Origin: an uncultured Gammaproteobacteria bacterium
GTDB taxonomy: Bacteria > Patescibacteriota > Patescibacteriia > Magasanikbacterales > GWA2-37-8
Length of the DNA: 64,000 bases
NCBI GenBank assembly: GCA_964478235.1
Contig: CAYZGX010000003.1
Span: forward strand, 5,914-69,913
Direction of reading: 5' to 3'
Below are positions 12,995 to 58,061 of this stretch, in pieces. The notes beneath the pieces were generated by a model. The model was not told where the DNA came from, ran no database searches, and saw only the letters and a list, made by a program, of their open reading frames with translations. Both the position numbers and the translations under genes were made by a program. The first letter of the stretch is position 1; each line of letters opens with the position of its first letter.

Positions 12995-13702
12995 CTAGAT
13001 ACTTTTCAGCATTCTAAAGAGTATCTGGAATGTTCTACCCACCTCTTTTTGCGTGATAACCGTGGCAAAAGCCGGCTCAAGTGCCGTAATGAGGGCAATT
13101 GTGTCGTTCCACTGTAAAATAATGGTCGCTGATAAGGCTTTTTCGTCCTTTTCAGCGCTTTCTTCGGCTATCGACCCACCAATTGTTTCACGTGAAACAA
13201 TTGGTAAGCCAATATGGGTATAGGTAATACCCCGTTGTTTTATTTGATCGGTAAAAAAAGTGTACAACTCCCCCGTAGCTGCCTGAAGTGGGCTTAGTTC
13301 ACCAAATAAGGTAATAATCGGCGCATCAAGCGCTTTGTAGAAAAGAGTTCGCACCGCCTCCCACCCCTCGAAAAAGCTAATCTGCGGTTTAAACTTTTGA
13401 GGAGTATACAGAGCTTGGAGATCTGGGATGATCTGTTGAGCTAAGGACTGTTGGCGCTCCAACATTTGAATAACTGATTCTGGATTTTTGGCACGATAGG
13501 CCTTTCGCTTACCATCGGGCATTTCTTCGATCAAACCTTTTTCTTGAAGGCTTTCAAAAATGTGGTAACAGTTGGTGCGGGCGATTTTTGTTTCACGTGA
13601 AACAATTGGTGGGGTAGTCAGACCGTTTGACAATAAAAAAAGATAGACAGTTGTTTCTGAAGGGGTGAGTCCAAGTTGGCGAAGTGTGGCTTGAATGTCC
13701 AT
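12995..13702 (-). CDS. TrmB-family winged-helix transcriptional regulator
   Basis: N-terminal HTH LGLTPSETTVYLFLLSNGLTTPPIVSRETKIARTNCYHIFESLQEKGLI matches the TrmB-type wHTH pattern. 235 aa. Confidence 0.7.
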   Translation of the reverse strand: MDIQATLRQLGLTPSETTVYLFLLSNGLTTPPIVSRETKIARTNCYHIFESLQEKGLIEEMPDGKRKAYRAKNPESVIQMLERQQSLAQQIIPDLQALYTPQKFKPQISFFEGWEAVRTLFYKALDAPIITLFGELSPLQAATGELYTFFTDQIKQRGITYTHIGLPIVSRETIGGSIAEESAEKDEKALSATIILQWNDTIALITALEPAFATVITQKEVGRTFQILFRMLKSI

Positions 13703-13938
13703 AATCTAATTGTCAAAAAAAAGTATACCATTAAATAAAATAAAAGTAAACAAAAAATAAAGTTTTTATCAAAAATAATATTGACAAAATTGACAAAATA
13801 AATAAACAGCGTACTATTAAGGCTGTGAAGCCCCTCTGGTTGCCATGCCTGGCCGGAGGGGTTCCGGTGTGGTACTCCACACCAAAATCGTGTATAATCT
13901 AAGGAGAAGAAGGGAAAATTTTAACGTTTCTTTATCCT

Positions 13939-16227
13939 ATGCTCTCACATTTTCGCGCCGCCCAATGGTTTGATAAAATTGCCTGGTTTTTACTCTGTGC
14001 CACCATCGTCGTTGTACCATTTGTGGTGGATAGTAGTCTCGCCAATGCCTTTGTTCTTCCTAAACAGTATTGGGCCTTCGGTTTAATCGCCGGCGCCTTG
14101 ATCGCTTGGGTATGCAAGATCGTGATGTTGCGCAAAGCAGGACTCTATCTTAGTCGGATTGATGCTGCTGTTGGAGCTTTCATTATAAGCGCAGTCATCG
14201 CCACTGTTTTTTCAGTCGCCAAATTCTCTAGCTTTATCGGGCGAGCCGACTACTTTAGTCTGAGCGCGCTTTTTTTTATCATGATGGGGTTCTTTTATTT
14301 CCTCATCATTCAAATGTGTCGTTCCCTCAAACAGTGGATGCTGCTTCTTGATGTAACTGTTTTAGTCAGTCTCACCGCTTCAATTATTTTTCTAGCTAAA
14401 GCATTATTTGACACTGATTTTTTTGCCTACTGGTTGCCGGATATTTGGAATAGTATTGATCAGGCTAATAGTTCGTTTGGTATTTGGCTTGTCGCCGCCC
14501 TTCTCTTATCTGCTGGGCAAATGATGCGCCGAAATATTTCTATTGCGCGAATTGCTCTCTACACGGCGACAACACTTCTTTCCTTCGTCGCTCTGATTAT
14601 TCTCAACTTCGGTATGATGTGGTGGTTGCTCCTTATTGGGGCAACGCTGTTATTATCGGTGGGAATTATTTTCTTGCGCGAAGTTCGTTTACCGTGGCTT
14701 TCAGCTATCTTTGTACTACTTTTAGCCTCAGCAATATTTATCGGCTTTGGTGCGCCACATTTAGTCTCCACAACGGTTCCATCAGAAGTGGTTCTCAACC
14801 GTGAAACATCGTGGTTTTTAGCAACTGAGAGTATTTTTTCAAGTGTTAAAAATACCGTTGTTGGCAACGGTCTCGGAACGTTTGGTCTCATCTTCTCACA
14901 ATATCGCGATCCAAGCTTTAATAACGATCCATACGCTTGGTCACTTCGCTTTAATCAACCGTTTAGCTCGGCCTTCACCTTGATTGGGGAGGGTGGTCTT
15001 CTTCTAACCTTGGTATTTATCGGCCTCATCCTATTTGTGGTTGGTATTATTATTACCACCATTAAAAAAGCCCGTGTAGAAATTGCCCGCCGTTCAGTGG
15101 TGCAGTTTTTTGACGAAGGTGTTCCTCCGCTGGAGACTCCGTTTATTGCGAGCGCCGCTGTCGCTGTGCCGTGGTTTGTTTTAACGCTTGCCATGGTCGT
15201 CTTCTATTTTGGCGCAGCGCTCTGGTTCTTGTGGTGGCTGCTTCTAGCTTTGGTGATGGTCAGTATCATCCTCTGTAATCCAAAAATGATCTCTTATAAA
15301 GAATTTGTTATTGAAGATTCTCCAGAATATACCTTATCATTTTCTTTTACCTTAATTGTTGTCCTTACCGCTGTGGTGGTGACTGGAGTATGGGGTGCTC
15401 GGATGTATTTAGCAGAACGTGCCTATGCAGGCAGTCTTCGTGCAACCACACTTGCCGAAGCGGAAGCTGGTTTTTTGAAAGCTTTGAGCTATCGATCAAA
15501 TAGCGAGGTTTATCACGCGGCTTTGGCGCAAGCCTACCTCCTTCAAGCGACTCAAGAAAGTCGTATGGAAAAACCAAATGTTGAAAAAATTGGGTTGTTG
15601 GTGCAAAAAGCCGTCAGTGAAGCGCGCTCCGCCACCGACAACGCCCCACGTTCAGTGGTGGTTTGGGAAAACTTAGCGGTGATGTATGAAAATGCCGCCG
15701 CTCTTATTCCAGAAGCTCGCGAGTGGGCTATCAAATCACTTCTCCAAGCTCGCTCACTTGAACCGAGTAACCCTGTGCTCTTGTGGCGCCTCGGTAATAA
15801 TTATATGCAAAGCAGTAATGTCGACGAGGGGATTAAGAGCTATCAAGAGGCGATTGCTCTGAAGCAAGATTATGTTACAGCCTACGATTCGCTCGCTAAA
15901 GCCTACGAACAAAAACAAGAAAATGATAAAGCTTTGGAAATTTATACCTTGCTTGTTCGTGCTCAGCCGACCAACAACGACTTCCTCTTTAATTATGCTC
16001 GCTTAGTCTATAATCGTGGTGCCAAAGATGATCGCGCGCTAGCCGAAGAGGTGTGGCTCGCTATTCTTGAACGTGAGCCAAATTACGCTAATGCTTTGTA
16101 TGGTTTAGCATCCCTCTATGAATTGCGCGGTAATCGTTCACAAGCTTTGGAGTACTATAAACGAGTGCTAGAGCTTAATCCGGGCAATAAAGATATTAAA
16201 ACTAAAGTCGATGCGCTTTCACGGTAA
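13939..16227 (+). CDS. Wzy_C (O-antigen ligase / O-oligosaccharyltransferase-like) polytopic membrane protein with C-terminal TPR repeats
   Basis: More than 10 predicted TM helices over ~480 aa. C-terminal ~250 aa has TPR-like repeats (AYDSLAKAYEQKQENDKALEIY..., ALYGLASLYELRGNRSQALEYYKRVLELNP). Preceded by an extended -10 TGTATAAT and AAGGAG RBS. Confidence 0.65.
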   Translation: MLSHFRAAQWFDKIAWFLLCATIVVVPFVVDSSLANAFVLPKQYWAFGLIAGALIAWVCKIVMLRKAGLYLSRIDAAVGAFIISAVIATVFSVAKFSSFIGRADYFSLSALFFIMMGFFYFLIIQMCRSLKQWMLLLDVTVLVSLTASIIFLAKALFDTDFFAYWLPDIWNSIDQANSSFGIWLVAALLLSAGQMMRRNISIARIALYTATTLLSFVALIILNFGMMWWLLLIGATLLLSVGIIFLREVRLPWLSAIFVLLLASAIFIGFGAPHLVSTTVPSEVVLNRETSWFLATESIFSSVKNTVVGNGLGTFGLIFSQYRDPSFNNDPYAWSLRFNQPFSSAFTLIGEGGLLLTLVFIGLILFVVGIIITTIKKARVEIARRSVVQFFDEGVPPLETPFIASAAVAVPWFVLTLAMVVFYFGAALWFLWWLLLALVMVSIILCNPKMISYKEFVIEDSPEYTLSFSFTLIVVLTAVVVTGVWGARMYLAERAYAGSLRATTLAEAEAGFLKALSYRSNSEVYHAALAQAYLLQATQESRMEKPNVEKIGLLVQKAVSEARSATDNAPRSVVVWENLAVMYENAAALIPEAREWAIKSLLQARSLEPSNPVLLWRLGNNYMQSSNVDEGIKSYQEAIALKQDYVTAYDSLAKAYEQKQENDKALEIYTLLVRAQPTNNDFLFNYARLVYNRGAKDDRALAEEVWLAILEREPNYANALYGLASLYELRGNRSQALEYYKRVLELNPGNKDIKTKVDALSR

Positions 16228-16867
16228 TATTACTGCTAGTCTAGTCATACTTGCGACGTTCGTCGCAAGTTTTGGTGCGCCACAAGCAGTTTTTGGTGAA
16301 ATGACATCTACTAATTATTCTATTTACGCAGACAGTGTTGGTTTTGGCGGGCTCAACAACAGTACAAGTACTTCATACACCCTAAGCGATACAGCCGGCG
16401 AAGCAGGGGCGGAGACAGCCACCAGCACCACGTATACTCTTCGAGGTGGTTTCCAGGCTATGGAACAAGATCAAAGTCTGTCGCTCACTATAAGCACCAG
16501 CTCGCTTAGTTTGGGGACGCTCAGTAAAACCGCCATCAGCAATGCCACCACCACATTTTCAGTTAGTACCAACTCGCTAACAGGTTACACCGTATCAATT
16601 AGTGGGGTTAGTGGTACATCGCCAGCCACCGTATCTGACGGTGCTGTCACCGCCGGATCTGATGAGTATGGTGTGGCAACAGTGGGAGATCATGGGGCAA
16701 TTTCTGGTGAAGCGTCAATTATCTTTGGTCGAGTTTTAGCTTCGTTTAACAATTCCACCAATGGGTATGCCACCACTACGCTCATATTTAGAGCCTCATA
16801 TGCAAGTGACGGGCTAGCTGGCGGGTATAGTCAGACCGTATCGCTTATTGCCTCGGCTAATTTTTAA
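16211..16867 (+). CDS. Secreted Ser/Thr-rich protein (signal peptide)
   Basis: Signal peptide MRFHGNITASLVILATFVASFGAPQAVFG. Mature part is dominated by S/T/G/A. Start overlaps the upstream gene end, so the true start may be internal. Confidence 0.5.
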   Translation: MRFHGNITASLVILATFVASFGAPQAVFGEMTSTNYSIYADSVGFGGLNNSTSTSYTLSDTAGEAGAETATSTTYTLRGGFQAMEQDQSLSLTISTSSLSLGTLSKTAISNATTTFSVSTNSLTGYTVSISGVSGTSPATVSDGAVTAGSDEYGVATVGDHGAISGEASIIFGRVLASFNNSTNGYATTTLIFRASYASDGLAGGYSQTVSLIASANF

Positions 16868-16870
16868 GCT

Positions 16871-17740
16871 ATGAAACGATTTGAGCTGGCGCTAGTTGGG
16901 ATAATAGGCATGTTGGCTATGAGTGTGCCATTTGGAGCGCAGGCTTTTTCTATCAAGCCAATAAAATATCGAGTGGTTGTTGATCCAGGGCTCGAGCAGA
17001 TTATTAGTGTGGACATCAGCAACACAGGAGCGGACACTCGTCGGTATACCATTCGGATGACTGGGGTAACCCAAGACACCGAAGGACGACCTATTTTTAA
17101 AGAGGGAAGTAGTCGGGCGGAAAACTGGCTCTATCCAGAAAAAAAAGAAATAACAATTGCCGCTCGCGAGACACAATCGCTCTTTATTACAGTTCGGCCA
17201 GACAAAAATGCTGAACCCGGGACACAGTACGCAGCTGTTTTGGTACAAGAAAATACGGCAGTACGCGGAAACATCGGGGTGCTTGCCGAAACAGCTTTGC
17301 TTGTCCAAGTTGATGTGGCGGGTGAAGTGCGTGAAGCGGTAAGCATTGAAAAGTGGGAAGCAATAAAAAATATTCAGGCCACCCCAGCCTGGGATAGTCA
17401 ATTTAGCATTAAAAACAACGGCACAATTTCGGTTCCGGTGAGCGGGGAAGTGGTCGTTACCAATTGGCGAGGTCGTGAAATCGCTCGTGTTCCGATTCAA
17501 GTTGGGTCAGATCTTTTACCAGCTACCCGTCGTGAGAAATTAGTTTCAACAGCGCTCCTCAAAGCATGGCCAGGCCCGTATCGTTTGGATGCTGTAGTGC
17601 GTTTTGGGGCAAGCCAGGCCGTTGCCAAAGCATCTTCAACGGTATGGTATATTCCAACGTGGAGTATCTCTGTTGTTCTGACCCTTGTTTTAGTAGCGCT
17701 TATATATCGAGGGTTACGACGTAGAAAGTATAGAGGTTAA
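16871..17740 (+). CDS. Cell-surface protein with signal peptide and C-terminal TM anchor plus basic tail
   Basis: N-terminal signal (LVGIIGMLAMSVPFGAQA). C-terminal WSISVVLTLVLVALIYRGLRRRKYRG. Beta-rich middle. Architecture recalls the membrane-anchored partner proteins of Firmicute surface-protein loci (inference). Confidence 0.5.
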   Translation: MKRFELALVGIIGMLAMSVPFGAQAFSIKPIKYRVVVDPGLEQIISVDISNTGADTRRYTIRMTGVTQDTEGRPIFKEGSSRAENWLYPEKKEITIAARETQSLFITVRPDKNAEPGTQYAAVLVQENTAVRGNIGVLAETALLVQVDVAGEVREAVSIEKWEAIKNIQATPAWDSQFSIKNNGTISVPVSGEVVVTNWRGREIARVPIQVGSDLLPATRREKLVSTALLKAWPGPYRLDAVVRFGASQAVAKASSTVWYIPTWSISVVLTLVLVALIYRGLRRRKYRG

Positions 17741-17746
17741 GTATAT

Positions 17747-20700
17747 ATGGTAAGGAGTTTTCGTACATTTTTTATACTCACACTCATCGCCCTGCTTGGT
17801 TTTAACCAAGCGTCTTTTGCTGTTGCGCAAACAACAACTAGTATTGATATTGGAATGACTATTCCAGGCACCGCTGGTGGCGGAGGTGGTGGAGGCGGTG
17901 GTAATAGTGATCCATTGCCAGAAACAGATAATTCGCCGTCTATCGGATCCGTGGTGGCGACTCCAGGATCAGTCTCGGCACAGATTACTTGGACAGCCAG
18001 TGACGATAAAGGCATTAGTGGTGTTACGTTGGAATACGGAACAACCGAATCATACGGCTCAAATGGTACGGTCAGCGGAGCCTACCTCGCCAATCTCGCC
18101 GGCTTAAGTGCTAGTACACAATATTTTTTTAGAATTAGAGTAACCGACAGTATTGGCCAGGTGGCTAGTTATACCGGCTCATTTACCACTAGCGCAGCTG
18201 CAGATACAACCGCTCCCAATGTGAGTGGAATTGTGGCAACAACTAATGTTACTACTGCCACGATACGGTGGGTGCTCAGCGAAACTGGAACCAGCGAAGT
18301 AGCCTATGGTCTGACAACAAGCTATGGTCAGAATAGTAGTTCTGAATCAGGTTCAGCAACGAATCACCTAACAACACTGAGCGGTTTGGTTGCCAACACA
18401 ACCTATCATTTTAGAATTTCAGCCACCGACAGTAGTGGTAACAGCACAACCACAATTGATGCGGTATTTACCACGCTCGCCGACACCGTGGCGCCAGCCA
18501 ACCCAACCAACGTCTCAGCTGTCACTTCAACCAGCGATATCACACTCGCCTGGACCAATCCACCAGACGGTGATTTTACAAGTATTACCATCGTGCGCAA
18601 AACTGGTAGTGCCCCAACCGCAATTGGTGATGGTACCAGTGTCTATGTCGGCAGTGGTCAAACTTTTGTTGATGCCACTGTTTCTTCGGGCGTCCTATAC
18701 TATTACACACTGTTTGCTTCTGACAGTTCGGGCAATGTAAGTGGTGGTGTGTCAGTAAACGGCCGCGTGACTGCTCCGGTGGTAAATGAAATTTGTAACA
18801 ACAACATTGACGACAATAGTAACGGCCAAACTGATTGTAGTGACTCGGCGTGTACCGCCTCTGCTATTTGTCAGCCACAGATAGAAATTTGTACCAATAG
18901 TATTGATGACGATAGCGATGGATTAATTGATTGCGCTGATTCAACCTGTACTGGGGCAAGTGTTTGCGCGGTTACGACCGAAATTTGTACCAATAGTATT
19001 GATGATAATAATAACGGGCAAACTGATTGTGCTGATGTTGCCTGTTTTGGTGTTTTGGCTTGTCAAAAAGATGATGACGGCTATGTTCCGCCAACCAGCA
19101 CGGTACCAGGAGGGGCTCGTCTCAATATTGGCGACCTCTTATTTTGGGGCGACGGCCGAAGAGTAGCTTTGCAGGTTAATAATGGGGTTGTGACGAGCTT
19201 AGCCGCCCACACAGTATCAGTTGGGCTTCGTAAATCATCGCTCGTGGACACAACTCCAATAAGTGTTATTTTAAAAAACGATAGTGCAAGCTATAGAATG
19301 GTATATGATTCGGGGAGCGAGGCTTACTACACTGACATTGTCTTTCCGCCTGTTGGTCGCCATAGCGTAGGTGTAGAAGTAAATTACGGTGCCGGACAAG
19401 TAGATGTCATTCCGTTTGTTTTTGAGAGTTTGCCTTTTGGTATAGTCCAAAGCGGCGGTCGTTTGGTCAAGGAAGCAACGGTGACCCTCACCACCGAGAG
19501 CGGGCAAGTGGTAGCTGTCGCGGGGAATCCCCACACCACTACTGTTAACGGGTCATATGGTTGGGTAGTACAAAACGGCAGATATATATTGCGGGTAACT
19601 GGCGAAGATTATTATCCACGAGTGACGACGGTTTTTCAGGTAAGCAATAATGTCGTCAATCAAACATTAGAGCTAGTTGAGCGACCACCAGATCTGCTAG
19701 ATGATATTAGCACCACCTCAACCTTGGCTGAAAACGCTACAGCCATTGCTAAAAACTTGGGTAAACAAGCCGGCGCTGTCGCTGAGCTCGGTGTTCAGCG
19801 CGCTAAAGATGCCGCTCAAGCAGTACGGGTCATCAAAAACGACCCAGCTGTTCAACAGGCCGCGAGTCAGGTTGTCGCCCCAACCGCCGTTGGTATCTTT
19901 GCTTTGAGCACCTTTACGGTCGTGAGTTGGAGCAGTATCTTGCCGTTCTTGCGCTTCCTCTTCTTGCAGCCACTCATGCTGCTTGGTTTACGTCGACGCG
20001 CTAAATGGGGTCAAGTCTATAACACCCTTACCAAATTACCGATTGATTTAGCCACTATTCGTTTGTTTGATGCCGAGAAAAATCGTGTACTGCAGGCAAA
20101 AGTGACCGATAAAGAAGGACGTTACGCTTTTGTGGTTAATCCGGGTAAATATCGCATGGAAGTTATTAAAAACGGTTTTGCCTTCCCCTCTGTTCTTTTG
20201 GCTGGAGTCAAAAGCGATGGTCGTCGACCAGATATTTATCATGGTGAAATTATTGAAGTGTCCGAGCAGGGGGCGGTTATCACCGCTAGCATTCCGCTTG
20301 ACCCAGCTGGTGAATATAAAAAGCCAACTCGTTTGATATTTCAAAAAATTGGTCGGGTGTTTCAAGCGGCCTTGTCTTGGCTTGGTCTCATCGTCACTCT
20401 CGCCTCATTATATATTTCCCCACGTTGGTATGTTTGGGTTTTGGCAGTGGTACATATTCTGTTCTTCTTCATGTTCCGTCGCTTGGCAGTGCCACCAAAG
20501 GTAAAAAGTTGGGGTATTGTCTACGATGCGGCCACCAAAAAGCCAATCGGTCGCGCTGTGGCTCGCTTGTTCAATTCCGAATTTAACAAGTTGGTCTCAA
20601 CCCAAGTCACCGACGGCAGTGGTCGCTATTACTTCTTAGCGAGTGATGATAAATATTATGTCACCTATGATCATCCGGAATACAAACAAGAAAAAACTGG

Positions 20701-21067
20701 TGTACTTGATCTAACTGGTCAGAAAACCGACCATATCGCTGTTGATATTGGTTTGGTAAAAGGCCAAGATGAACCAAGAGCGCCCCTCGCTCCGTCGGCA
20801 CCAGTTGTTACTCCAGCACCCGAAGTGCCTCCGCCAGCAACCAATCAGAAACTGCCGGAAGCCCCACCGAGCGCTCCGGTAGTGTCAGAAACTGCATCAG
20901 CTGTAGCTACACCGATTGATCTGAATAACCCGCCTGAGCCCACCCCAGAAGCAGTGGTTTCGCACATTGATTTGGCTAATCCACCCGAACCATCAGCCCC
21001 AAACTCATTACCACATATTGATTTAGCCAACCCACCAGAACCAGGCGAAGAAAAAAAAGCACCATAA
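17747..21067 (+). CDS. Giant multidomain surface protein
   Basis: Signal peptide, then a poly-Gly run. Three FN3-like repeats (…TQYFFRIRVTDS…, …TTYHFRISATDS…). Three ~36-aa repeats CTNSIDD(D/N)x(D/N)GxxDCADxxC. Three regulatory-like beta-sandwich domains (e.g. IRLFDAEKNRVLQAKVTDKEGRYAFVVNPGKYRMEV) alternating with hydrophobic TM segments. C-terminal IDL(A/N)NPPEP x3 at 20920-21050. Confidence 0.75.
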   Translation: MVRSFRTFFILTLIALLGFNQASFAVAQTTTSIDIGMTIPGTAGGGGGGGGGNSDPLPETDNSPSIGSVVATPGSVSAQITWTASDDKGISGVTLEYGTTESYGSNGTVSGAYLANLAGLSASTQYFFRIRVTDSIGQVASYTGSFTTSAAADTTAPNVSGIVATTNVTTATIRWVLSETGTSEVAYGLTTSYGQNSSSESGSATNHLTTLSGLVANTTYHFRISATDSSGNSTTTIDAVFTTLADTVAPANPTNVSAVTSTSDITLAWTNPPDGDFTSITIVRKTGSAPTAIGDGTSVYVGSGQTFVDATVSSGVLYYYTLFASDSSGNVSGGVSVNGRVTAPVVNEICNNNIDDNSNGQTDCSDSACTASAICQPQIEICTNSIDDDSDGLIDCADSTCTGASVCAVTTEICTNSIDDNNNGQTDCADVACFGVLACQKDDDGYVPPTSTVPGGARLNIGDLLFWGDGRRVALQVNNGVVTSLAAHTVSVGLRKSSLVDTTPISVILKNDSASYRMVYDSGSEAYYTDIVFPPVGRHSVGVEVNYGAGQVDVIPFVFESLPFGIVQSGGRLVKEATVTLTTESGQVVAVAGNPHTTTVNGSYGWVVQNGRYILRVTGEDYYPRVTTVFQVSNNVVNQTLELVERPPDLLDDISTTSTLAENATAIAKNLGKQAGAVAELGVQRAKDAAQAVRVIKNDPAVQQAASQVVAPTAVGIFALSTFTVVSWSSILPFLRFLFLQPLMLLGLRRRAKWGQVYNTLTKLPIDLATIRLFDAEKNRVLQAKVTDKEGRYAFVVNPGKYRMEVIKNGFAFPSVLLAGVKSDGRRPDIYHGEIIEVSEQGAVITASIPLDPAGEYKKPTRLIFQKIGRVFQAALSWLGLIVTLASLYISPRWYVWVLAVVHILFFFMFRRLAVPPKVKSWGIVYDAATKKPIGRAVARLFNSEFNKLVSTQVTDGSGRYYFLASDDKYYVTYDHPEYKQEKTGVLDLTGQKTDHIAVDIGLVKGQDEPRAPLAPSAPVVTPAPEVPPPATNQKLPEAPPSAPVVSETASAVATPIDLNNPPEPTPEAVVSHIDLANPPEPSAPNSLPHIDLANPPEPGEEKKAP

Positions 21068-25258: not shown

Positions 25259-25591
25259 TTAGGATCGCGGAGTAGGAGTGGTAGTAGCTGGTCGAGGCAC
25301 CGGAACAAAGACATTCCGAAGCGTTGAGGAGGGAACACTAGCATTATTCTTGAGAAGTATCAAGGTTCTAGCCTGATCAAAGGAATTTTGGTTAATAACG
25401 GTAATAACGGTGGCAAAATTAAGCACAGCAATAGTATCAGCGTCTTCCAGTGTTCGATAAATTTTAAGATAGATAAAATAGATACTACCAACAGCGCTGG
25501 CGAGCAAAAAAGCCAGTGTCAAAATACTGACAATTCGCCAGCCAAGATAGGCGGTGGTTTTTTGTAGTTTTGGAAATTTAATTGACAGCAT
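25259..25591 (-). CDS. Small membrane protein at the end of the pil operon (possible minor assembly component)
   Basis: Single TM (VSILTLAFLLASAVGSIYFIYL). Pro/Thr-rich C-terminus. Co-oriented with and 13 nt overlapping pilO. Confidence 0.4.
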   Translation of the reverse strand: MLSIKFPKLQKTTAYLGWRIVSILTLAFLLASAVGSIYFIYLKIYRTLEDADTIAVLNFATVITVINQNSFDQARTLILLKNNASVPSSTLRNVFVPVPRPATTTPTPRS

Positions 25592-26126
25592 AGAGACTCA
25601 TTTCAATGGTAGCGTTAATAAGTTGTTCAGTCGGACGATTTCTGTCTGACACACTACTCATTGTTAGGCGGTTAATAGAGATAAAATAGGGAACTCGCTC
25701 CAGAGCGGTTATATAGGTAAGAACATTGGTGTAGCCGCCCGAGACAGATATAGAGAAAGTAATCTTTTTGTCAGTGATAGTATCGAGATTGGAAGAAAGA
25801 ACTTTGTAACTTAGTTTATTGTGAGAAGCGGTTTCTTCAAGCAGGGTAATCAAAGCGAGCTCGTTACCAAGAGTATAGAGATGATCGTCGAACGTCTCAA
25901 GCTGGTCTTTAATTTCGGCAATTTTTTTGACGGAAACTTTAGCGTTAGCACTTCGAGCGTAGCGCTGCTCAAGATAGAAGCGAAGATTGTACGTTTCTTT
26001 ATCGGCTTCATAAATCGCTTTGACCGTTGGCACCAAGATAAACCCAATAATAATCAACAAAATAACGCCAAAACTAGCTACCAGAGCCTGTATTTTCTGC
26101 CCAGTTGTCAGATGTGGTAATGGCAT
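25578..26126 (-). CDS. pilO: Type IV pilus assembly protein PilO-like
   Basis: N-terminal TM plus coiled coil. Position after pilN in the operon. ~180 aa. Confidence 0.55.
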   Translation of the reverse strand: MPLPHLTTGQKIQALVASFGVILLIIIGFILVPTVKAIYEADKETYNLRFYLEQRYARSANAKVSVKKIAEIKDQLETFDDHLYTLGNELALITLLEETASHNKLSYKVLSSNLDTITDKKITFSISVSGGYTNVLTYITALERVPYFISINRLTMSSVSDRNRPTEQLINATIEMSLYAVN

Positions 26127-26130
26127 AAGG

Positions 26131-26682
26131 TTATGATTTTTTTAGCGGTGACGGTAAAGCAATCGATCCTTTAATTTCAAAACCAACATTCTCCTTTTGG
26201 AATAGCTGTGATTTTGGAGTAGAAACATTCTTGATCCAAGGGATAGTGGCTAAAATTTGCTGGAAATTAAGGAGGGCTGGGCGAGATTCAGCGTTGCCAG
26301 TAATAAGAATCGTGTTATTTTTTCGATCAATATCAAGCACTTGAAGAGTAATAGTTGAAGGAATAACAGCAAACAGCTCCTGGAGACGTTCAGAAATGAT
26401 AGTGAAATCAGCTCCTGATAACGTCACTGATTTGGTCAGGCTGTTAATACGACGGACTTCTTGGTCGACCGCTGTTTGTTCACGATTAATAAGCAAGGTG
26501 CTGGTGGAAAGATCGGCCAAAGTTTGACTGATGATTAAAAGACCAAGTAAGTGGATGACGGTGATAAAAGAAAAAACCAAAATAGTTATTTCCAAAAGTT
26601 CTTTAACGAAAATAAAACGCACTAAGTTTAAAAACTTTTTTCGTTTGTCTGGTGATAGTAAATTGAGGTGGAGAGTCTTCAT
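26131..26682 (-). CDS. pilN: Type IV pilus assembly protein PilN
   Basis: N-terminal LNLLSPDKRKKF (INLLP-type PilN motif) followed by a TM helix. Overlaps pilM by 4 nt. Confidence 0.7.
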   Translation of the reverse strand: MKTLHLNLLSPDKRKKFLNLVRFIFVKELLEITILVFSFITVIHLLGLLIISQTLADLSTSTLLINREQTAVDQEVRRINSLTKSVTLSGADFTIISERLQELFAVIPSTITLQVLDIDRKNNTILITGNAESRPALLNFQQILATIPWIKNVSTPKSQLFQKENVGFEIKGSIALPSPLKKS

Positions 26683-27767
26683 ACGCCGTCGTCGTGTAAT
26701 GGATTATGAGCAGCTCGAAGAGCGAGGCCAAGCGGAAGGGCGAGTGATAGGTCACTATCTTTTACAGGGGTATTTTTGTAAGTAACATTTTTCCAAATAT
26801 GACCGGGGTGGGTGGAAATTTTCAGTTTTTGGGATAAAATCAGATCTAAATTAGCAAGACCAGCAGCTGGCCCAGCCATAGTTCCGTGTGAAATGGTATT
26901 GGTGCTGGAGAAATGATCTTGGTAGAAGGTTATAGCGTTTTGAATATCGTCAACCAAGCGTTTTAGCATGCCATCAACAACGTTAATATATTTAGGGTAT
27001 TTTTTGGAATGAACACATCCTTGTTCTTTGATAAAAGATAATGCTTCATCATGAGTAATTTTGAGGCCTTGAGACACCGCTGTGGTGAGAAGAGATAGCG
27101 AAAACGGTAGGGAAGCGCTAAATTGAATAGTATCATGGTCATAGACCACCAAACTGGAGCGGTCGTAGCCCAAATGAAACAAAGCACGAGCTTGCCCCGT
27201 ATAGTCTTTGTCTTCAGTGATAAGGACGCGGGTGAGAGCGGCCGCTTCCATATCCAATGCAAGCGGATTAAGGCCTGCCGCCTCAAGAAGATAGGTGTAG
27301 GAGTCAGAAGCAATTTTAGTGACGCTGGTGAGCAAAAATTGCGTCTCTTTTTCTGAGGTAGTAATCATTTGCCAGTCAAAATAGGCCTCATCTTCGCTGA
27401 AAGGCAAGTGTTTGGAGGCGTGGTAATGAATATCGTCGGTGGTAATTTCTTTGTCTGAGCCTGGAATAGTAATCAAAGTAATAAAGGTCTTTGGCTCAGG
27501 AATGTTAGCTACTACCCAGGGGCTTTTAATTTTTTTATAAGCCCCATCTTCTCCAAGAAGATGTAAAATTTTTCGACGAACGACTTCCGGTTGTTCGATT
27601 TCTCCGTTTACAATACAGCCTGGCGGAAGAGTGGTAGTGCGCAAATTAGCAACCGAAAAATACTCCTTGCCAAATAAAGGAGAGTGGTGATTAAGTTGGA
27701 GCAGGGTCAAGGACAAATCATCGATGTAGAGACCGAACGCCCCAGGAAATGGGTTGCTTAAAAACAT
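26679..27767 (-). CDS. pilM: Type IV pilus assembly ATPase-like protein PilM (actin-fold)
   Basis: ~360 aa actin-like fold protein directly upstream of pilN, the typical pilMNO order. Confidence 0.75.
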   Translation of the reverse strand: MFLSNPFPGAFGLYIDDLSLTLLQLNHHSPLFGKEYFSVANLRTTTLPPGCIVNGEIEQPEVVRRKILHLLGEDGAYKKIKSPWVVANIPEPKTFITLITIPGSDKEITTDDIHYHASKHLPFSEDEAYFDWQMITTSEKETQFLLTSVTKIASDSYTYLLEAAGLNPLALDMEAAALTRVLITEDKDYTGQARALFHLGYDRSSLVVYDHDTIQFSASLPFSLSLLTTAVSQGLKITHDEALSFIKEQGCVHSKKYPKYINVVDGMLKRLVDDIQNAITFYQDHFSSTNTISHGTMAGPAAGLANLDLILSQKLKISTHPGHIWKNVTYKNTPVKDSDLSLALPLGLALRAAHNPLHDDGV

Positions 27768-27773
27768 ATTTTT

Positions 27774-28883
27774 TTAGAAACTTTGAGCCAGCGAGTACAT
27801 CGGCATGATAACAGCCACCGCCACACCCATAATAAGAATCATAACCGGCTCAACAATCGTTGAAAAATTACGCATGGTAGCGTCAACCTCTTCGCCATAA
27901 TATTCGGACAATTCTGACAGCATGTGGTCTACCTGACCCGATTGTTCACCCACCATAATCATCTGCACCACCATTGGGGGGAAGTACATCGGGTATTTAG
28001 CCAGTGTTTCAGATAGTGGGGAACCCTTTTTGAGATCCTCAGCCATCACTAGAACACTTTCGCGGTAGCGAACGTTACCTAACACCTGAGCGGTAATTTT
28101 TACCGCTTCAATAATTGGCAAGGCACTTTGGAGAAGTGAAGATAGCGTGAGAGTGAAGCGGGCAATATTAATTTTCTTCATAATAATACCAAACACCGGT
28201 AGTTTGAGAAGAAAAGCATGAACTTGGTATTTGACCGGTGGTTTGCGCAAGAGCCAGATACAAAAACTAACAAAAGCAACAAGACCAAGAGCGACAAGCA
28301 GAGCGTACTTTTCAGAAAAATTGACCACGCCCATTAAGATGCGAGTTGGCAGTGGTAGCTCAGCGTTAAAATCGTTGAACATCACTAAGATTTTTGGTAA
28401 TACAAAGACCACCATTTCAATACCGATACCAGTCATAGCGGTCATAATTACTGCCGGGTAAATGAGTGCACCACGAATACGGCTGGTCAGCTCATGGCTC
28501 TTTTTCATCTGATTATAGACTTGCTCGAGCGATTCCTGCATTTTACCAGCCGATTCACCGGCAGCAATCATGCTCACATAAATTGGAGGGAACACTGCTG
28601 GGTAATCAGCCAGCACTTCGCTCAGCTGACGGCCTTTTTCAACTTGGAGCTTGATTTCACCTAAAATGCCTTGAAGACGTTTATTGTCCACCTGCTCAGC
28701 TAGAATACGCAAGCCATCAATAATCGACAGGCCGGCTTTGACCATGATCGACAAGTTGTGAACAAATAACATTTTCTGAACAAACGGAATACGAACCAGA
28801 TGATCATTAATCCAGGCAGTAAATTTATCCGGTGGCGGAGCTGTTTTTGTCGCCGATAGTTGTTTTTTGGTAGCAACTCGCAT
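27774..28883 (-). CDS. pilC: Type IV pilus / T2SS platform protein PilC (GspF family)
   Basis: Two T2SSF-type repeats each with cytoplasmic domain plus TM helices. 369 aa. Confidence 0.9.
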   Translation of the reverse strand: MRVATKKQLSATKTAPPPDKFTAWINDHLVRIPFVQKMLFVHNLSIMVKAGLSIIDGLRILAEQVDNKRLQGILGEIKLQVEKGRQLSEVLADYPAVFPPIYVSMIAAGESAGKMQESLEQVYNQMKKSHELTSRIRGALIYPAVIMTAMTGIGIEMVVFVLPKILVMFNDFNAELPLPTRILMGVVNFSEKYALLVALGLVAFVSFCIWLLRKPPVKYQVHAFLLKLPVFGIIMKKINIARFTLTLSSLLQSALPIIEAVKITAQVLGNVRYRESVLVMAEDLKKGSPLSETLAKYPMYFPPMVVQMIMVGEQSGQVDHMLSELSEYYGEEVDATMRNFSTIVEPVMILIMGVAVAVIMPMYSLAQSF

Positions 28884-28885
28884 AC

Positions 28886-30679
28886 TTATTCTTTGGTCAC
28901 GCGTAAGATCTCACTAATTGTAGTGATACCCATTTTAGCTTTGAGGAGCGCATCCTCAAGCATCGTTAACATACCGTTTTTACGAGCAGCCGCAGCAATT
29001 TCATCAGCTGAAGCGCGCTTATTGACCATAGTTACAATGTCTGGGGTGATTTCCAGCACTTCATAAATACCCTGACGGCCTTTGTAGCCAGTGTCACCAC
29101 AGCGTCGGCAGCCTTCGCCTTGAAAAAAAGTAGTTGGGTCAGTATTTCGTCCTTTATCTTTTGGAATATTATTTTTGAAAAGGGTGACTAGTTTTTCGGT
29201 GGCAAACAAGCGGGCTAAATCATCAGCTGCTGTTTTTTCTAGTTTGTATTCTTTTTTACAAAACGTACAAATTTTGCGGACTAAACGCTGAGCCACGATG
29301 ATATTAGCAGTGTAAGCTACTAAAAATGGTGGCACGCCCATATCCAAAAGGCGAGGTAGGGAAGTAGCTGCATCATTGGTGTGGAGGGTGGAGAGCACCA
29401 AGTGGCCAGTCATAGCGGCGTTGATGGCGATTTCAGCAGTTTCTTGGTCGCGGATTTCACCGACCATGATAATATTTGGGTCTTGGCGAAGAAGCGCGCG
29501 AAGGCCAGAGGCAAAAGTGAAGCCAACCTTTGGATTAATCTGTGATTGGTTGACGCCCGGCATGCGATATTCAATTGGATCCTCAACAGTGGAAATATTC
29601 ACGCCTGGTTGGTTCAAAATACCAAGTACTGAATAGAGGGTGGTAGTTTTACCGCTACCAGTTGGGCCGGTAACCAAAATCATTCCGTGCGGTTTGGTGA
29701 TGGCACGCTCTACTTTTTGGCGAGCGTCATCAAGGAAGCCGAGCTGATCAAGGGTGAGAGCATTCGTACCTTCATGCAAGATACGCATAACCACTTTTTC
29801 ACCATCATAGACTGGTAAAATAGAGACACGGAAGGCTACTCGTTCGTCGCCAGCCTGGATTTTGAAGCGACCATCTTGTGGAATCATATGCTCGTCGAGC
29901 TTGGCATTACAGAGAATTTTGAGACGAGCAATAACACCACTCTGAATACTCTTTGGCAGGGTCATGATTTGCTTCAAAATACCATCAATACGATAGCGGA
30001 CACTAATATCTTTTTCAGTTGGCTCAATATGGATATCGGAAGCACCTTCAAAAACAGCATTTTCTAAAATACTGTTGACGACGTTGATAACATTGACGGC
30101 TTCGGCCGCTTTTTTGAGATCACTACCGCCTTCGCCACCTTCGCTGTCTTGGATAACTTTGAGTTGTTCGCTTTCGAGCTCGGCATGATAGCGACGAAGC
30201 GCTTCGCGGAGATCAGACGGAGCGGTGACATAGACTTTCGGTTCAAGACCAGTTTTACGACGCAAAAATTCAATCGTCTGAATATCTGACGGGTCGGTCA
30301 TGGCGATTTTAATCTCACTCGCCGATTTTTCAAAAATAACTACTTGATGAGTGCCAGCAACCGGGCCAGGAATAAGGGCCAGCACCTCTTTTTTAATCTC
30401 ACGCCCTTTGAGGGGGATAAAGGTGACCCCAGCGTCAGCGCCGATTTTGGTGTAGAGTTCTTTTTCGTCAATAAGATTATCGGTAATCAGAACCTCCTCC
30501 AAAGTTTTGTTGAGTTTGACCGCTTTAGCCTCAGCTTTGCGCAGTTCAGCGGCGGGTATTTTAAAAGTTGTCTTAAGAAGCTTCTTAAGATTTGCCGTAG
30601 TTGGCATAGAAGTATGCGGAAATGTACCGGACAAGACGGTACATACCGTCAGTATAGCATACTTTAGGGATTTTTTCAC
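28886..30679 (-). CDS. pilB: Type IV pilus assembly ATPase PilB (GspE family)
   Basis: Walker A GPTGSGKTTT. Asp/His boxes. C-terminal tetracysteine CTFCKK...CRRCGDTGYKGRQGIYE. N-terminal GSPII_E_N-like domain. Confidence 0.95.
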   Translation of the reverse strand: MKKSLKYAILTVCTVLSGTFPHTSMPTTANLKKLLKTTFKIPAAELRKAEAKAVKLNKTLEEVLITDNLIDEKELYTKIGADAGVTFIPLKGREIKKEVLALIPGPVAGTHQVVIFEKSASEIKIAMTDPSDIQTIEFLRRKTGLEPKVYVTAPSDLREALRRYHAELESEQLKVIQDSEGGEGGSDLKKAAEAVNVINVVNSILENAVFEGASDIHIEPTEKDISVRYRIDGILKQIMTLPKSIQSGVIARLKILCNAKLDEHMIPQDGRFKIQAGDERVAFRVSILPVYDGEKVVMRILHEGTNALTLDQLGFLDDARQKVERAITKPHGMILVTGPTGSGKTTTLYSVLGILNQPGVNISTVEDPIEYRMPGVNQSQINPKVGFTFASGLRALLRQDPNIIMVGEIRDQETAEIAINAAMTGHLVLSTLHTNDAATSLPRLLDMGVPPFLVAYTANIIVAQRLVRKICTFCKKEYKLEKTAADDLARLFATEKLVTLFKNNIPKDKGRNTDPTTFFQGEGCRRCGDTGYKGRQGIYEVLEITPDIVTMVNKRASADEIAAAARKNGMLTMLEDALLKAKMGITTISEILRVTKE

Positions 30680-46790: not shown

Positions 46791-47363
46791 ATGCATACAA
46801 CCGACGAACAAGCCTTGGTGGCAGCTGCCCAAAAAGGCGACAAACAGGCCTTTGGTGTGCTCTATGAAGCCTACCTCAAGGCTATCTATACGTTTATCTA
46901 CTACAAAACACACCACAAAGAAACTGCCGAAGATGTGACTAGTCAGGCGTTTATAAAAGCCTACGACAACCTCACTTCGTATTCGCCGGACAAAGGAACT
47001 TTTTCCGCCTGGCTCTATCGCATTGCCCGCAATACTGTTTTTGATCATTTCCGCGCTATAAAGACAACACAAGATGTGGAAGATGCTTGGGATCTCTCAA
47101 GCGGTGAAGATGTCCTGCGCGACACCCACCACCGAACACTGCTCGAAGATGTTCAAAAATACTTAAAGACCCTCTCAGCCGAACAGCGAGAAATTATCAT
47201 CCTCCGCTTGTGGCAGGAAAAAAGTTTTGCTGAAATCGCTGAAATTCTTGGTAAAAGCGAAGCTGGTTGCAAGATGATGTTCGGTCGAACGATTCTAAAA
47301 CTTCGCGAAACAATGCCGCCAGCTATCCTCACCCTCCTCCTATCCAACGCCTTATTCAGATAA
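46791..47363 (+). CDS. ECF-subfamily RNA polymerase sigma-70 factor
   Basis: Region 2 (FGVLYEAYLKAIYTFIYYKTHHKETAEDVTSQAFIKAY) and region 4 HTH (SFAEIAEILGKSEAGCKMMFGRT). 190 aa. Confidence 0.9.
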   Translation: MHTTDEQALVAAAQKGDKQAFGVLYEAYLKAIYTFIYYKTHHKETAEDVTSQAFIKAYDNLTSYSPDKGTFSAWLYRIARNTVFDHFRAIKTTQDVEDAWDLSSGEDVLRDTHHRTLLEDVQKYLKTLSAEQREIIILRLWQEKSFAEIAEILGKSEAGCKMMFGRTILKLRETMPPAILTLLLSNALFR

Positions 47364-47374
47364 GCCTTTATTGT

Positions 47375-49418: not shown

Positions 49419-49451
49419 TCGAGGGTGGCCGCATGTTGCGACCACCCTCGA
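49419..49451 (-). terminator. Perfect 10-bp hairpin between mscL and the convergent GC-rich gene
   Basis: TCGAGGGTGG-n13-CCACCCTCGA. On the minus strand it is followed by ATCATTTTTGG. Confidence 0.5.
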
Positions 49452-49486
49452 GTGTTATTGAGTCTCCGCCGATTGCTCGGTCGAGA

Positions 49487-50716: not shown

Positions 50717-50996
50717 AGGACGCTCCATTCGGTCGAACAGGGTCGACCGTGAGAAAATTTTTTTACAACACCACACCATGTGGCCAAAAGAGGTCCATCA
50801 AAGGATGAAACGCTTGTGGCCACACAGTAAAATGGTGTTTTTACGACAAAAAGGTAGTTGTAAAAGAACGGTTGATTATACCAAAAAAAAGCCCTTTTGT
50901 CAAGGGTAAAAAGGAGTATTTTGGCTAATATAAGGTATTTATTCACGGTTTAGGCAGATTATTTTTTGCTAAAGTGCATAGAATAAAGGGGATTTA

Positions 50997-56248: not shown

Positions 56249-56716
56249 TTAGAGAACGAAATCTTTTCGGAGTCGGCGAAGGGTGTATATGCCAAAAGTG
56301 AAAAGGGTAAATGAGGTGAGCGCTGAGAGAAGACAAAATTGACACCAAGCTTCAAGGATTTGCCATTGAACAATAATAAAATAGAGAGAAGCTAAGAGGC
56401 CAATAGTGGTCGCCCGAGCGGTGAGAACCAGAATATCTCGTCGTTTGGTATCGAGATAAGCAGTGACACCAATAATAATAGCTAAATAATAGAGAGCGCC
56501 AAGAAAGGCGACGGGCACAGGGCCAACGGCCGAAAATGAGCTGGTAAGCACTGTGTCACAACCCTTAACAAGACTACAAGGGGGGATAGTCCCTCGAATA
56601 TGACTCAAGGTAAGGTATGCCGAATCAAGGAGTCCGATAAGAGCGACCACTAAGAAGCCGGCGATGAGTAGTTTACTCACCAAGCGCGGATTTGATAGCG
56701 AGTTCGAGGTCTCCAT
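56249..56716 (-). CDS. Vitamin K epoxide reductase (VKOR) family protein
   Basis: Loop Cys pair (PPCSLVKGC) and TM4 CxxC (WCQFC). 4-5 TM helices. Confidence 0.8.
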   Translation of the reverse strand: METSNSLSNPRLVSKLLIAGFLVVALIGLLDSAYLTLSHIRGTIPPCSLVKGCDTVLTSSFSAVGPVPVAFLGALYYLAIIIGVTAYLDTKRRDILVLTARATTIGLLASLYFIIVQWQILEAWCQFCLLSALTSFTLFTFGIYTLRRLRKDFVL

Positions 56717-57311: not shown

Positions 57312-57322
57312 AGAGGTTGGTG

Positions 57323-57937: not shown

Positions 57938-58061
57938 ACAAACGTATACTAGAAATAGATAAATAAAATACTGTCTTTTCAGTATAACATATCGTGTCGA
58001 GAGGGCAAGGGGAGGGGTTAAAAAAACACCTCCGGTTGAGCCAGAGGTGTTTTTGGATAGA

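Follow-up and report, generated by a model that had tools for sequence, protein, structure and literature searches.

What kind of surface system is encoded by four closely packed genes of an uncultured, ultrasmall bacterium of the candidate phyla radiation (CPR), in which a polytopic membrane protein is followed by a small, a medium-sized and a very large exported protein? The four open reading frames (ORF1 to ORF4, Table 1) lie in a 64 kb stretch of DNA, the whole of which was analysed and is here called the window; it is a fragment of a CPR genome, and its close protein relatives come from metagenome-assembled genomes of Candidatus Magasanikbacteria. Attachment to host cells is the presumed way of life of CPR bacteria, yet few of the structures that serve it are understood. 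A first-pass annotation of this DNA had proposed a module for protein O-glycosylation and display, in which ORF1, as a Wzy_C-type enzyme, would act on Ser/Thr-rich exported neighbours. In the reading that we favour, and to which we give moderate confidence, ORF2, ORF3 and ORF4 constitute a minimal and divergent surface-fibre module of the Pam or WxL kind, usher-less, chaperone-assisted and based on donor strands, and ORF1 is an accessory to it.

The order of the genes gives a first answer. All four are read from the plus strand and nearly abut, with an overlap of 17 nt between ORF1 and ORF2 and gaps of 3 nt between ORF2 and ORF3 and of 6 nt between ORF3 and ORF4, an arrangement that the first-pass annotation had described correctly. 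Transcription signals, weak evidence in themselves, comprise a promoter-like site before ORF1; the junctions between the ORFs showed nothing that convincingly resembles a terminator. Block order was compared only in related loci long enough to show all genes; in these it is kept, on one strand, as a membrane protein with tetratricopeptide repeats (TPR) followed by proteins of ~210, ~290-310 and ~970-1300 aa. The four-gene block was seen in 3 loci reached through ORF1 homologues, in 13 more Magasanikbacteria loci reached through ORF4 homologues (checked with local hidden Markov models, HMMs), in 2 loci reached through distant ORF3 relatives and in 2 further loci reached through ORF1 homologues. 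Over 20 related loci in all keep the gene order; protein identity between related four-gene loci is only 36-56%, and the shared arrangement is far beyond chance. One of these blocks (locus L026) stands in another genomic neighbourhood (trigger factor, H+-PPase, LysM peptidase), which argues that the block travels as a unit. Of pilin-like and of chaperone-like genes the window has one each. ORF1 always adjoins the other three genes in Magasanikbacteria, sometimes overlapping them, and the ORF2-ORF3-ORF4 triad is found without any ORF1-like gene in 4 loci of other lineages (L020, L021, L024 and L025), of which L025 shares the surrounding PolA-holA-S20-RmuC synteny yet lacks ORF1. Because the triad occurs elsewhere on its own, it forms the conserved core, to which ORF1 was added; ORF1 is a lineage-specific accessory and not the organising enzyme of the locus. 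The genes are co-conserved, and the claim of the first-pass annotation of a dedicated surface display module, not of lipopolysaccharide (LPS) synthesis, stands. As to regulation, a divergent gene for a TrmB-family regulator (12995-13702, minus strand) lies directly upstream of ORF1 and possibly controls the locus; L002, L004 and L022 also have a TrmB gene in this place, and L026 does not.

The second step concerns ORF2, which connects the locus with a pilus described only in 2026, from one cultivated Saccharimonadia species. In this Pam pilus of Candidatus Mycosynbacter amalyticus (CPR, Saccharimonadia), PamA and PamB polymerise by donor-strand exchange, and PamT has been proposed as a single-domain tip subunit (bioRxiv 10.64898/2026.03.03.709456). 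ORF2 matches two NCBIfam models, NF058579 ('CPR-type pilus protein PamT'; E=1.4e-17, 63.9 bits) and NF058581 Pam_pilin_C ('Pam pilus system pilin subunit'; E=4.7e-6, 26.8 bits), and among 39 members of its family the PamT model is matched in 37 (best E=1e-21) and Pam_pilin_C in 30 (best E=4e-12). Judged by these profile matches, ORF2 is a genuine but divergent homologue of the Pam pilins. Its signal peptide (aa 1-29) is followed by conserved N-terminal strands (aa 30-93, with the motifs MTSTNYxIxAD, SxSYxL and YxLxGGFQ) and by a C-terminal Ig-like domain (aa 94-218) that ends in ANF; in the family alignment the mature protein opens with the highly conserved strand M-T-S-x-N-Y-x-I-x-x-D, and two more short strands precede the Ig-like domain. 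The 155 homologues detected are mostly of ~210 aa and carry no Pfam annotation, and some relatives reach ~300-344 aa through an inserted domain of ~90-130 aa. ORF2 itself had no match in a Pfam scan, and a PDB sequence search with the single sequence and with a 39-sequence profile returned no meaningful match, neither to a released PamA/B chain nor to a WxL chain, the long one of 9i25 among them. The Ig fold of ORF2 is putatively incomplete, and its donor-strand partners are likewise putative. The protein had been described as a signal-peptide protein consisting mostly of Ser/Thr; the signal peptide is there, and 'mostly' overstates a serine plus threonine (S+T) content of 31% (34% in the mature protein), which nevertheless lies 4.6 standard deviations (SD) above the window mean of 13.5% (SD 3.8%).

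The third step concerns ORF3. Its signal peptide (aa 1-25) is followed by two Ig-like domains (aa 26-149 and aa 157-260), a transmembrane (TM) helix (aa 263-288) and an RRRK tail, and the AlphaFold2 (AF2) model, built from a 45-member alignment with a predicted local distance difference test (pLDDT) score of 93.5, consists of two beta-sandwich domains and a C-terminal helix at aa 263-288. The model confidently describes a two-Ig-domain protein with a C-terminal membrane anchor, and agrees with the earlier description of a secreted, beta-rich protein with a C-terminal TM segment and RRRK tail. Foldseek against the PDB placed the Enterococcus faecium WxLIP structures 9i1y and 9i25 ('bound to long WxL') at the top (E=7e-13, prob 1.00), followed by the chaperone-usher chaperones CfaA, CsuC, FimC, Caf1M, PapD and FaeE (E=1e-10 to 1e-7, prob 1.00). 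At the sequence level, the profile of the 45-member family found EfmWxLIP1 (9i25_C, E=3.2e-5) as its sole significant PDB match, the single sequence having none, and Pfam PF06030 WxLIP_PGBD (DUF916) is matched in 34 of the 45 relatives, with ORF3 itself below the Pfam threshold. ORF3 is homologous to Firmicute WxLIP (DUF916) and to the chaperone-usher chaperones, and the clear WxLIP homology links the Pam-type systems of CPR bacteria with the WxL clusters of Firmicutes; the resemblance to Firmicute surface-protein loci, to which the first-pass annotation had given a passing remark, was thus its most accurate part. A profile search of 1.84 billion representatives returned 4919 relatives at E<=1e-3, of which 171 reach E<=1e-30, and almost all have 280-300 aa; close homologues are few, and the family as a whole is very large (~4900 clusters at 50% identity).

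In chaperone-usher chaperones, the F1-G1 donor region is located between the last two strands of domain 1. The sole low-confidence ectodomain stretch of the ORF3 model (aa ~129-139) lies between the last two strands of its own domain 1 and would thus be placed where those chaperones hold their donor region. In the Pam system the corresponding proteins are PamC and PamD, PapD/FimC-like chaperones with a C-terminal TM helix (bioRxiv 10.64898/2026.03.03.709456). Since ORF2 is a Pam-family pilin homologue and ORF3 is pilus-chaperone-like, the Ser/Thr-rich proteins of the locus are better taken as fibre subunits than as generic glycosylation substrates. The Ser/Thr richness itself holds for ORF2 and for part of ORF4 and fails for ORF3, whose 13.5% S+T is ordinary. 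The public annotation of ORF3 (P0041, 276 aa) starts at 16910 and so lacks 13 codons of the form that opens with the ATG at 16871. The longer form has a normal signal peptide and fits the 289-aa homologues, so that the deposited gene is probably truncated at its start.

ORF4 would supply the anchor and a strand to be donated. Behind its signal peptide (aa 1-27) come an alternating-hydrophobic strand (aa 28-41, SIDIGMTIPG) and a poly-Gly linker (aa 42-53). Of 20 distinct ORF4 homologues, 19 have the pattern Phi-x-Phi-x-Phi-T-Phi-P immediately behind the signal peptide, and the linker that comes next is hypervariable among the homologues, being poly-G, poly-P or Cys-rich. The donor strand of chaperone-usher pilins is an alternating-hydrophobic free N-terminal strand on a flexible tether. 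PamR combines fibronectin type III (FnIII) domains and a C-terminal TM helix with an extra N-terminal strand that is predicted to insert into a pilin (bioRxiv 10.64898/2026.03.03.709456); by analogy with PamR, the strand at the N-terminus of ORF4 would be a candidate for donation, and the architecture of ORF4 as described here is PamR-like. The ectodomain comprises three FnIII domains (aa ~62-345, 32% S+T), three acidic double-disulfide repeats (aa 346-445, 12 Cys) and beta domains (aa 446-650), with three stretches each matched by Pfam fn3 and by NCBIfam NF033662 acid_disulf_rpt. It is followed by a membrane module with hydrophobic regions at aa 709-748 and 872-910, each succeeded by a basic cluster and a CarboxypepD_reg/SdrD_B-like domain (WGxVY...RLF...VTD..GRY.F); if the positive-inside rule holds, both small domains would be cytoplasmic, as would the tail, an uncommon location for folds of this kind. 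The Pro-rich tail contains three IDL(A/N)NPPEP repeats (20900-21064), is genome-specific and is missing in the L003 and L004 homologues. The earlier description of ORF4 as a multidomain surface protein needs a correction: the protein is not only a surface one, its most conserved part across homologues being the C-terminal module with the two hydrophobic regions. The possibility that ORF4 carries a pilin-like domain, in the manner of large WxL proteins with their WxL domain, was rejected: none was found with local HMMs, and hhalign of the ORF2 family against the ORF4 family gave no shared domain. Elsewhere in the window, a VKOR gene and two DsbA-like thioredoxin genes stand in a row (56249-58138, minus strand) as an extracytoplasmic disulfide-forming system, which fits the 12-Cys repeats of ORF4. 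The 1298-aa ORF4 homologue of L026 (9865-13761) has PT-HINT / intein-splicing matches that suggest an inserted intein or Hint domain.

ORF1 is confirmed as a polytopic protein with C-terminal TPR repeats. The TPR half is unambiguous from its sequence, with matches to many Pfam TPR families and with OGT- and consensus-TPR proteins among its PDB sequence matches. The AF2 model, of low overall confidence (pLDDT 61, predicted template-modelling score 0.62), has ~13 helices; because this number is odd and the AF2 helices follow a consistent positive-inside pattern, the TPR domain is predicted to lie outside the cell. Between helices 9 and 10 the model has an extracytoplasmic, conserved loop of ~75 aa (aa 270-344, nt 14746-14970), the conserved region aa 260-356 being poorly defined. 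The membrane half belongs to a CPR-restricted family of ~760-aa proteins; across 12 homologues, R250, R323, R337, E351 and a GxGxGTF...AWSLRFNQP motif are invariant, and D31, D174, E283 and D330 nearly so. Comparison of the model with WaaL-type structures, as the first-pass annotation had suggested, gave a divided result. WaaL (7tpg_B) is the sole specific PDB match in Foldseek (prob 0.99), all others having prob <=0.18, and the helix plan of ORF1, nine helices, a large conserved loop and more helices, fits that of WaaL; the match itself is a distant one (E=0.037, TM scores 0.38/0.44, 481 columns, 15% identity) to a model of pLDDT 61. Sequence comparison does not extend it: the Wzy_C model is matched in 1 of 12 homologues, at a marginal E=0.0026, and a precomputed Wzy_C match is present in 0 of 40; no NCBIfam ligase model matches ORF1; in the PDB the family profile of the membrane domain finds nothing and the single sequence TPR proteins only; and hhalign of the family against Escherichia coli K-12 WaaL is not significant (prob 0.12). 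Other glycosyltransferase folds fare no better, as loop 1 lacks the DDX motif of the glycosyltransferase C (GT-C) class, with D31 as its single near-invariant Asp, no ArnT, PMT or Emb structure is among the Foldseek matches, and none of the 12 family members has a Pfam PMT_2, DUF2723 or DUF1736 match. A weak NCBIfam similarity to the TPR assembly factors PilW, Tgl and GltE was also seen. The description that suits ORF1 best is of a membrane protein, WaaL-fold-like and possibly catalytic, that carries an external domain for protein binding. The first-pass label of a Wzy_C-type enzyme is not borne out by the standard Pfam models, which return TPR only, and membership in the Wzy_C/PglL group is not established, the catalytic His, one of its defining features, being absent.

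Taken together, these data suggest the following assembly path. ORF2, ORF3 and ORF4, which all carry Sec-type signal peptides with an ordinary AxA (read from the sequence), would be exported by Sec. ORF3 would remain bound, through its C-terminal helix, to the outside of the cytoplasmic membrane, and its two Ig-like domains would lend a strand to newly arrived ORF2, as in PapD/FimC and WxLIP. ORF2 would next be passed by donor-strand exchange to the N-terminal strand of ORF4, and possibly also to that of another ORF2, giving a short polymer. ORF4, rooted by its C-terminal module, would project its FnIII and disulfide-repeat stalk outward, with the ORF2 subunit or subunits at the distal end as tip or fibre. 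What the data show directly is homology, folds and gene linkage, from which the exchange of strands and its partners, the length of a polymer and any glycosylation are inferred. ORF1, added in Magasanikbacteria, would most likely modify the Ser/Thr-rich fibre proteins, for example by transfer of a lipid-linked glycan, and less likely scaffold their assembly through TPR docking; a role in attaching sugar is plausible but unproven, and dedicated O-glycosylation is at present hypothetical.

Several findings weigh against this reading. ORF2 scores far below the curated NCBIfam cut-offs (63.9 versus 240 bits for the PamT equivalog model, 26.8 versus 55 bits for Pam_pilin_C) and by this measure is a relative of PamT, not an equivalog. 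It also shows no sequence relation to WxL proteins, with Pfam WxL in 0 of 39 relatives and no W-x-L motif in ORF2, and neither ORF3 nor its relatives match a Pam chaperone model in NCBIfam, if such models exist. A local HMM search of the 64 kb window found no second pilin-like gene, and thus no two-domain major pilin of the PamA/B/E type, which form the shaft of the Pam pilus, so that a filament as long as that of M. amalyticus cannot be taken for granted. For the part assigned to ORF1, Pfam Wzy_C is absent at E<=1, and from the membrane domain even at E<=10; the 12 homologues share no conserved His, the membrane domain of ORF1 having only H4 and H274, neither of them conserved; no glycosyltransferase or sugar-nucleotide genes were found in the window; and the triad exists without ORF1 in other lineages.

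These last points bear most directly on the view that the locus is primarily a protein O-glycosylation system, with ORF1 as a PglL/TfpO-like O-oligosaccharyltransferase and the Ser/Thr of ORF2 and ORF4 as chief acceptors of a lipid-linked glycan. We consider this view rather unlikely. In its favour, ORF1 strictly adjoins and overlaps the gene of Ser/Thr-rich ORF2; the S+T content of ORF2 and of the ORF4 FnIII region is 31-34%; the only specific fold match is WaaL; the large conserved external loop between helices 9 and 10 carries invariant Arg; and the TPR domain is probably external. PamA Ser356 has an unexplained adduct or modification (bioRxiv 10.64898/2026.03.03.709456), and genes of known O-oligosaccharyltransferases often adjoin those of their targets (PMC3643930; for TfpW, bioRxiv 10.1101/2020.04.19.049825). 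The functional residues are R215, R288 and H338 in E. coli WaaL and R224, R298 and H349 in PglL (PMC3643930), and the ORF1 family has no conserved His to match H338 or H349. With this, the missing Wzy_C assignment, the failure of profile and hhalign searches to reach WaaL, the low model confidence in the putative catalytic loop, the ORF1-less triads and the lack of glycosyltransferase or sugar-synthesis genes nearby, O-glycosylation is compatible with the donor-strand fibre module as an add-on, not as the principle that organises the locus. The statement that no other LPS genes are present is essentially correct. The window shows just one gene for lipid-linked glycans, a lone Wzx/MOP-family flippase (Polysacc_synt / Polysacc_synt_3; 52573-54006, minus strand) with no neighbouring glycosyltransferases, and its substrate could just as well be lipid II.

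Unlikely as well, in our estimate, is a static complex like that of WxL clusters, in which ORF3 would remain permanently bound to ORF2, to ORF4 or to both as a membrane or wall tether for an adhesin, and no polymerisation by donor strands would take place. The closest relative of ORF3 in both structure and sequence is WxLIP, solved together with a long WxL protein, and a stable, stabilising interaction has been proposed for WxLIP (PMC10599100); moreover, one small, one WxLIP-like and one large protein mirror the commonest WxL cluster, and the window has one pilin-like gene only. Against this, the relatives of ORF2 among the Pam pilins do form polymers through donor-strand exchange, and ORF2 has no detectable WxL domain or W-x-L motifs; ORF4 has a membrane anchor of its own, which makes tethering by ORF3 unneeded; and the conserved free N-terminal strand of ORF4, on its flexible linker, is better explained as a strand to be donated.

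It is less probable still that ORF1 does not act on the fibre proteins as an enzyme at all, being either a co-transcribed WaaL/Wzy-like polymerase or ligase of an envelope glycopolymer, or a non-catalytic TPR docking platform that stands in for an usher. Loss of the catalytic His would fit this, and to our knowledge Wzy polymerases lack the WaaL His; TPRs are generic protein-docking modules, the weak similarity to PilW, Tgl and GltE points the same way, and the four-gene block moves as a unit. The Pam model, however, needs no platform, and the triad stands alone in other lineages; the strongly conserved charged residues of the external loops (D31, D174, E283, R323, D330, R337 and E351) look like an active site and not like a passive scaffold. 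An LPS/O-antigen locus, a sortase pilus and a component of a type IV pilus can be dismissed, given respectively a monoderm CPR host with no glycan-synthesis genes nearby, no LPXTG-like motif in ORF2 or ORF4, and ordinary signal peptides, not of the class III prepilin kind, together with a type IV pilus cluster at another place in the window.

Table 1. Features of the locus, with positions counted from the first letter of the window.
Feature	Position	Strand	Basis
Promoter-like site TTGACA-16-TACTAT, candidate start of a four-gene transcript	13790..13817	+	Consensus scan, 10/12 match; consensus match only
ORF1, whole gene, 762 aa	13939..16227	+	
ORF1 membrane domain, aa 1-505, ~13 TM helices	13939..15453	+	AF2 model
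ORF1 C-terminal TPR domain, aa ~506-762, predicted extracytoplasmic	15454..16227	+	Pfam TPR, PDB sequence matches
ORF2, Pam-family pilin-like subunit, 218 aa	16211..16867	+	NCBIfam matches
ORF3, membrane-anchored chaperone-like protein of WxLIP / PamC-D type, 289 aa	16871..17740	+	AF2, Foldseek, profiles
ORF4, whole gene, 1106 aa	17747..21067	+	
ORF4 N-terminus, candidate donor strand	17747..17905	+	Motif in homologue alignment
ORF4 ectodomain	17930..19696	+	Pfam fn3, NCBIfam NF033662, composition
ORF4 C-terminal membrane module, aa ~700-1010	19844..20776	+	Hydropathy, Pfam SdrD_B/CarboxypepD_reg
ORF4 Pro-rich C-terminal tail, 28% Pro	20777..21067	+	Composition, sequence

The type IV pilus genes just mentioned occupy 25578-30679 on the minus strand (PilM/N/O-like, 25578-27767; another gene, 27774-28883; a PilB-type T2SSE ATPase, 28886-30679), so that two unrelated appendage systems lie within 10 kb. 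Arrays of 4-9 small T4SS_pilin (PF18895) genes are found just upstream of two of the ORF1-less triads (L021:260-5409 and L024:1-4360). In most related loci the triad is accompanied by a giant secreted protein of 1100-2500 aa with a conserved N-terminus (…P-x-[IV]-I-T-Y-Q-G-K-[LV]…) and with LVIVD repeats or a tail-fibre / Peptidase_G2 / S74-chaperone-like C-terminus (L003:16076-20304, L004:15959-20289, L017:3210-7757, L020:4429-5748, L021:12296-13513, L024:12888-16283, L025:12206-16706 and L026:13872-14280). In L017 its gene lies between the ORF3 and ORF4 homologues; the window has no such gene, and the one next to ORF4 there is ychF, which follows it. The giant protein probably corresponds to the 'tail fibre-like protein' of the Pam preprint, and it may be another adhesin that donates a strand. 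A single 787-aa ORF (34892-37255, minus strand) fuses glucose-6-phosphate dehydrogenase (N- and C-domains) to 6-phosphogluconate dehydrogenase, and an ORF resembling a sigma factor of the extracytoplasmic function type (46791-47363) overlaps that of a 553-aa membrane protein without family match (47267-48928), which looks like a sigma/anti-sigma pair. A 439-aa, L/R/G-rich plus-strand ORF (49433-50752) was rejected as a gene, being a spurious mirror of a 430-aa, K/E/A-rich minus-strand gene (49487-50779); neither has a Pfam match, and the region is the GC maximum of the window (0.50-0.52, 48-52 kb).

The class of system is already known, from the Pam pilus (the 2026 preprint and the NCBIfam models) and from the WxL/WxLIP clusters. 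New are the reduced gene set of one PamT-like subunit and one chaperone, the much larger, polytopic PamR-like partner (ORF4), the Magasanikbacteria host range and the conserved coupling to a His-less WaaL-fold/TPR protein; in the description of the pam operon neither an ORF1-like membrane/TPR gene nor a link between Pam and WxL is mentioned (bioRxiv 10.64898/2026.03.03.709456). A stripped-down version, with one pilin-like subunit, one tethered chaperone and one giant anchored stalk, is kept across Magasanikbacteria and related lineages, and the homology of its chaperone to the WxLIP of virulence-associated WxL clusters in Firmicutes suggests a common principle of chaperone-assisted assembly in bacteria without an outer membrane. 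ORF1 offers a concrete candidate enzyme for the unexplained Ser modification on Pam pilins. Known here from sequences and models, the locus is of value as a well-defined and testable minimal system. A bolder proposal, which for the moment we would call speculative and improbable, sees the triad as the minimal, ancestral-looking form of one monoderm-wide, usher-less chaperone/donor-strand system that unites the Pam pili of CPR bacteria with the WxL clusters of Firmicutes, ORF4 donating a tethered strand to the PamT-like subunit and Magasanikbacteria having recruited a His-less WaaL-fold/TPR protein as a pilin-directed glycan transferase of a new class or as an inner-membrane platform.

Among known systems, ORF1 is to be compared with the enzymes that glycosylate pilins. 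It is polytopic and encoded directly upstream of a pilin-like gene; TfpO/PilO and PglL (Wzy_C family) and TfpW are membrane enzymes encoded beside pilin genes, and WaaL, the sole specific fold match of ORF1, is a structural relative of PglL and TfpO. TfpW is a polytopic GT-C pilin arabinosyltransferase with a periplasmic TPR domain, is encoded next to pilA and glycosylates the pilin (bioRxiv 10.1101/2020.04.19.049825); ORF1 shares with it a large C-terminal TPR domain, probably outside the membrane. Unlike these enzymes, ORF1 is below the Pfam Wzy_C threshold, has neither the catalytic His of WaaL/PglL nor a DDX motif, and gives no ArnT-like fold match, and its target would be a donor-strand pilin and not a type IV pilin. 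With WaaL (PDB 7TPG) it has in common nine helices before a large external loop with conserved Arg; it differs from WaaL in an extra 13th helix, in the TPR domain and in the lack of a conserved His, as well as in its host, a monoderm CPR bacterium without LPS.

The chaperone-usher pili (Pap, Fim, Caf1, Csu, CFA/I) share with the locus the two-domain Ig-like fold of ORF3 and, presumably, assembly by donor strands. The N-terminal extension of chaperone-usher pilins resembles the alternating-hydrophobic N-terminal strand of ORF4. Here, in contrast, there is no outer membrane and no usher, and the chaperone-like protein is membrane-tethered; Pfam and NCBIfam scans of ORF1-4 found no usher family, and chaperone-usher pilins showed no similarity in sequence. 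Firmicute WxL clusters encode at least two WxL-domain proteins, small and large, with dual W-x-L motifs, and a WxLIP protein, the last consisting of DUF916, DUF3324 and a TM segment (PMC10599100; PDB 9i1y, 9i25), and AF2 predicts that a strand of the WxLIP DUF916 domain is inserted into the WxL domain (PMC10599100). The locus resembles them in having a WxLIP homologue at the level of both sequence and fold (ORF3), in the three-gene logic by which a WxLIP accompanies a small secreted subunit and a large multidomain protein, and in a chaperone-like protein predicted to insert a strand into its partner. It departs from them in that neither a WxL domain nor W-x-L motifs can be detected in ORF2 or ORF4, that ORF3, at 289 aa, falls short of the 337-365 aa of WxLIP, that ORF4 is anchored by its own TM module instead of a peptidoglycan-binding WxL domain, and that the host is a CPR bacterium.

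There is, lastly, the Pam system itself. Its operon encodes PamA/B/E/T together with PamC and PamD, whereas here one short PamT-like pilin gene and one chaperone are present; PamR is small, with 2xFnIII and a single helix, whereas ORF4, at ~1100 aa, is ~4-5 times larger and has three FnIII domains, Cys repeats and a polytopic C-terminal module; and the lineage is Magasanikbacteria, not that of the Pam host. CPR bacteria lack an outer membrane (bioRxiv 10.64898/2026.03.03.709456), and the two systems have in common a CPR host, components exported by Sec and no usher. ORF2 shares homology with PamT and with the Pam pilin C-domain; ORF3, compared by described architecture, has the two-domain PapD/FimC-like fold and C-terminal TM helix of PamC and PamD; and ORF4, compared by description, joins FnIII domains, a membrane anchor and an extra N-terminal strand in the manner of PamR.

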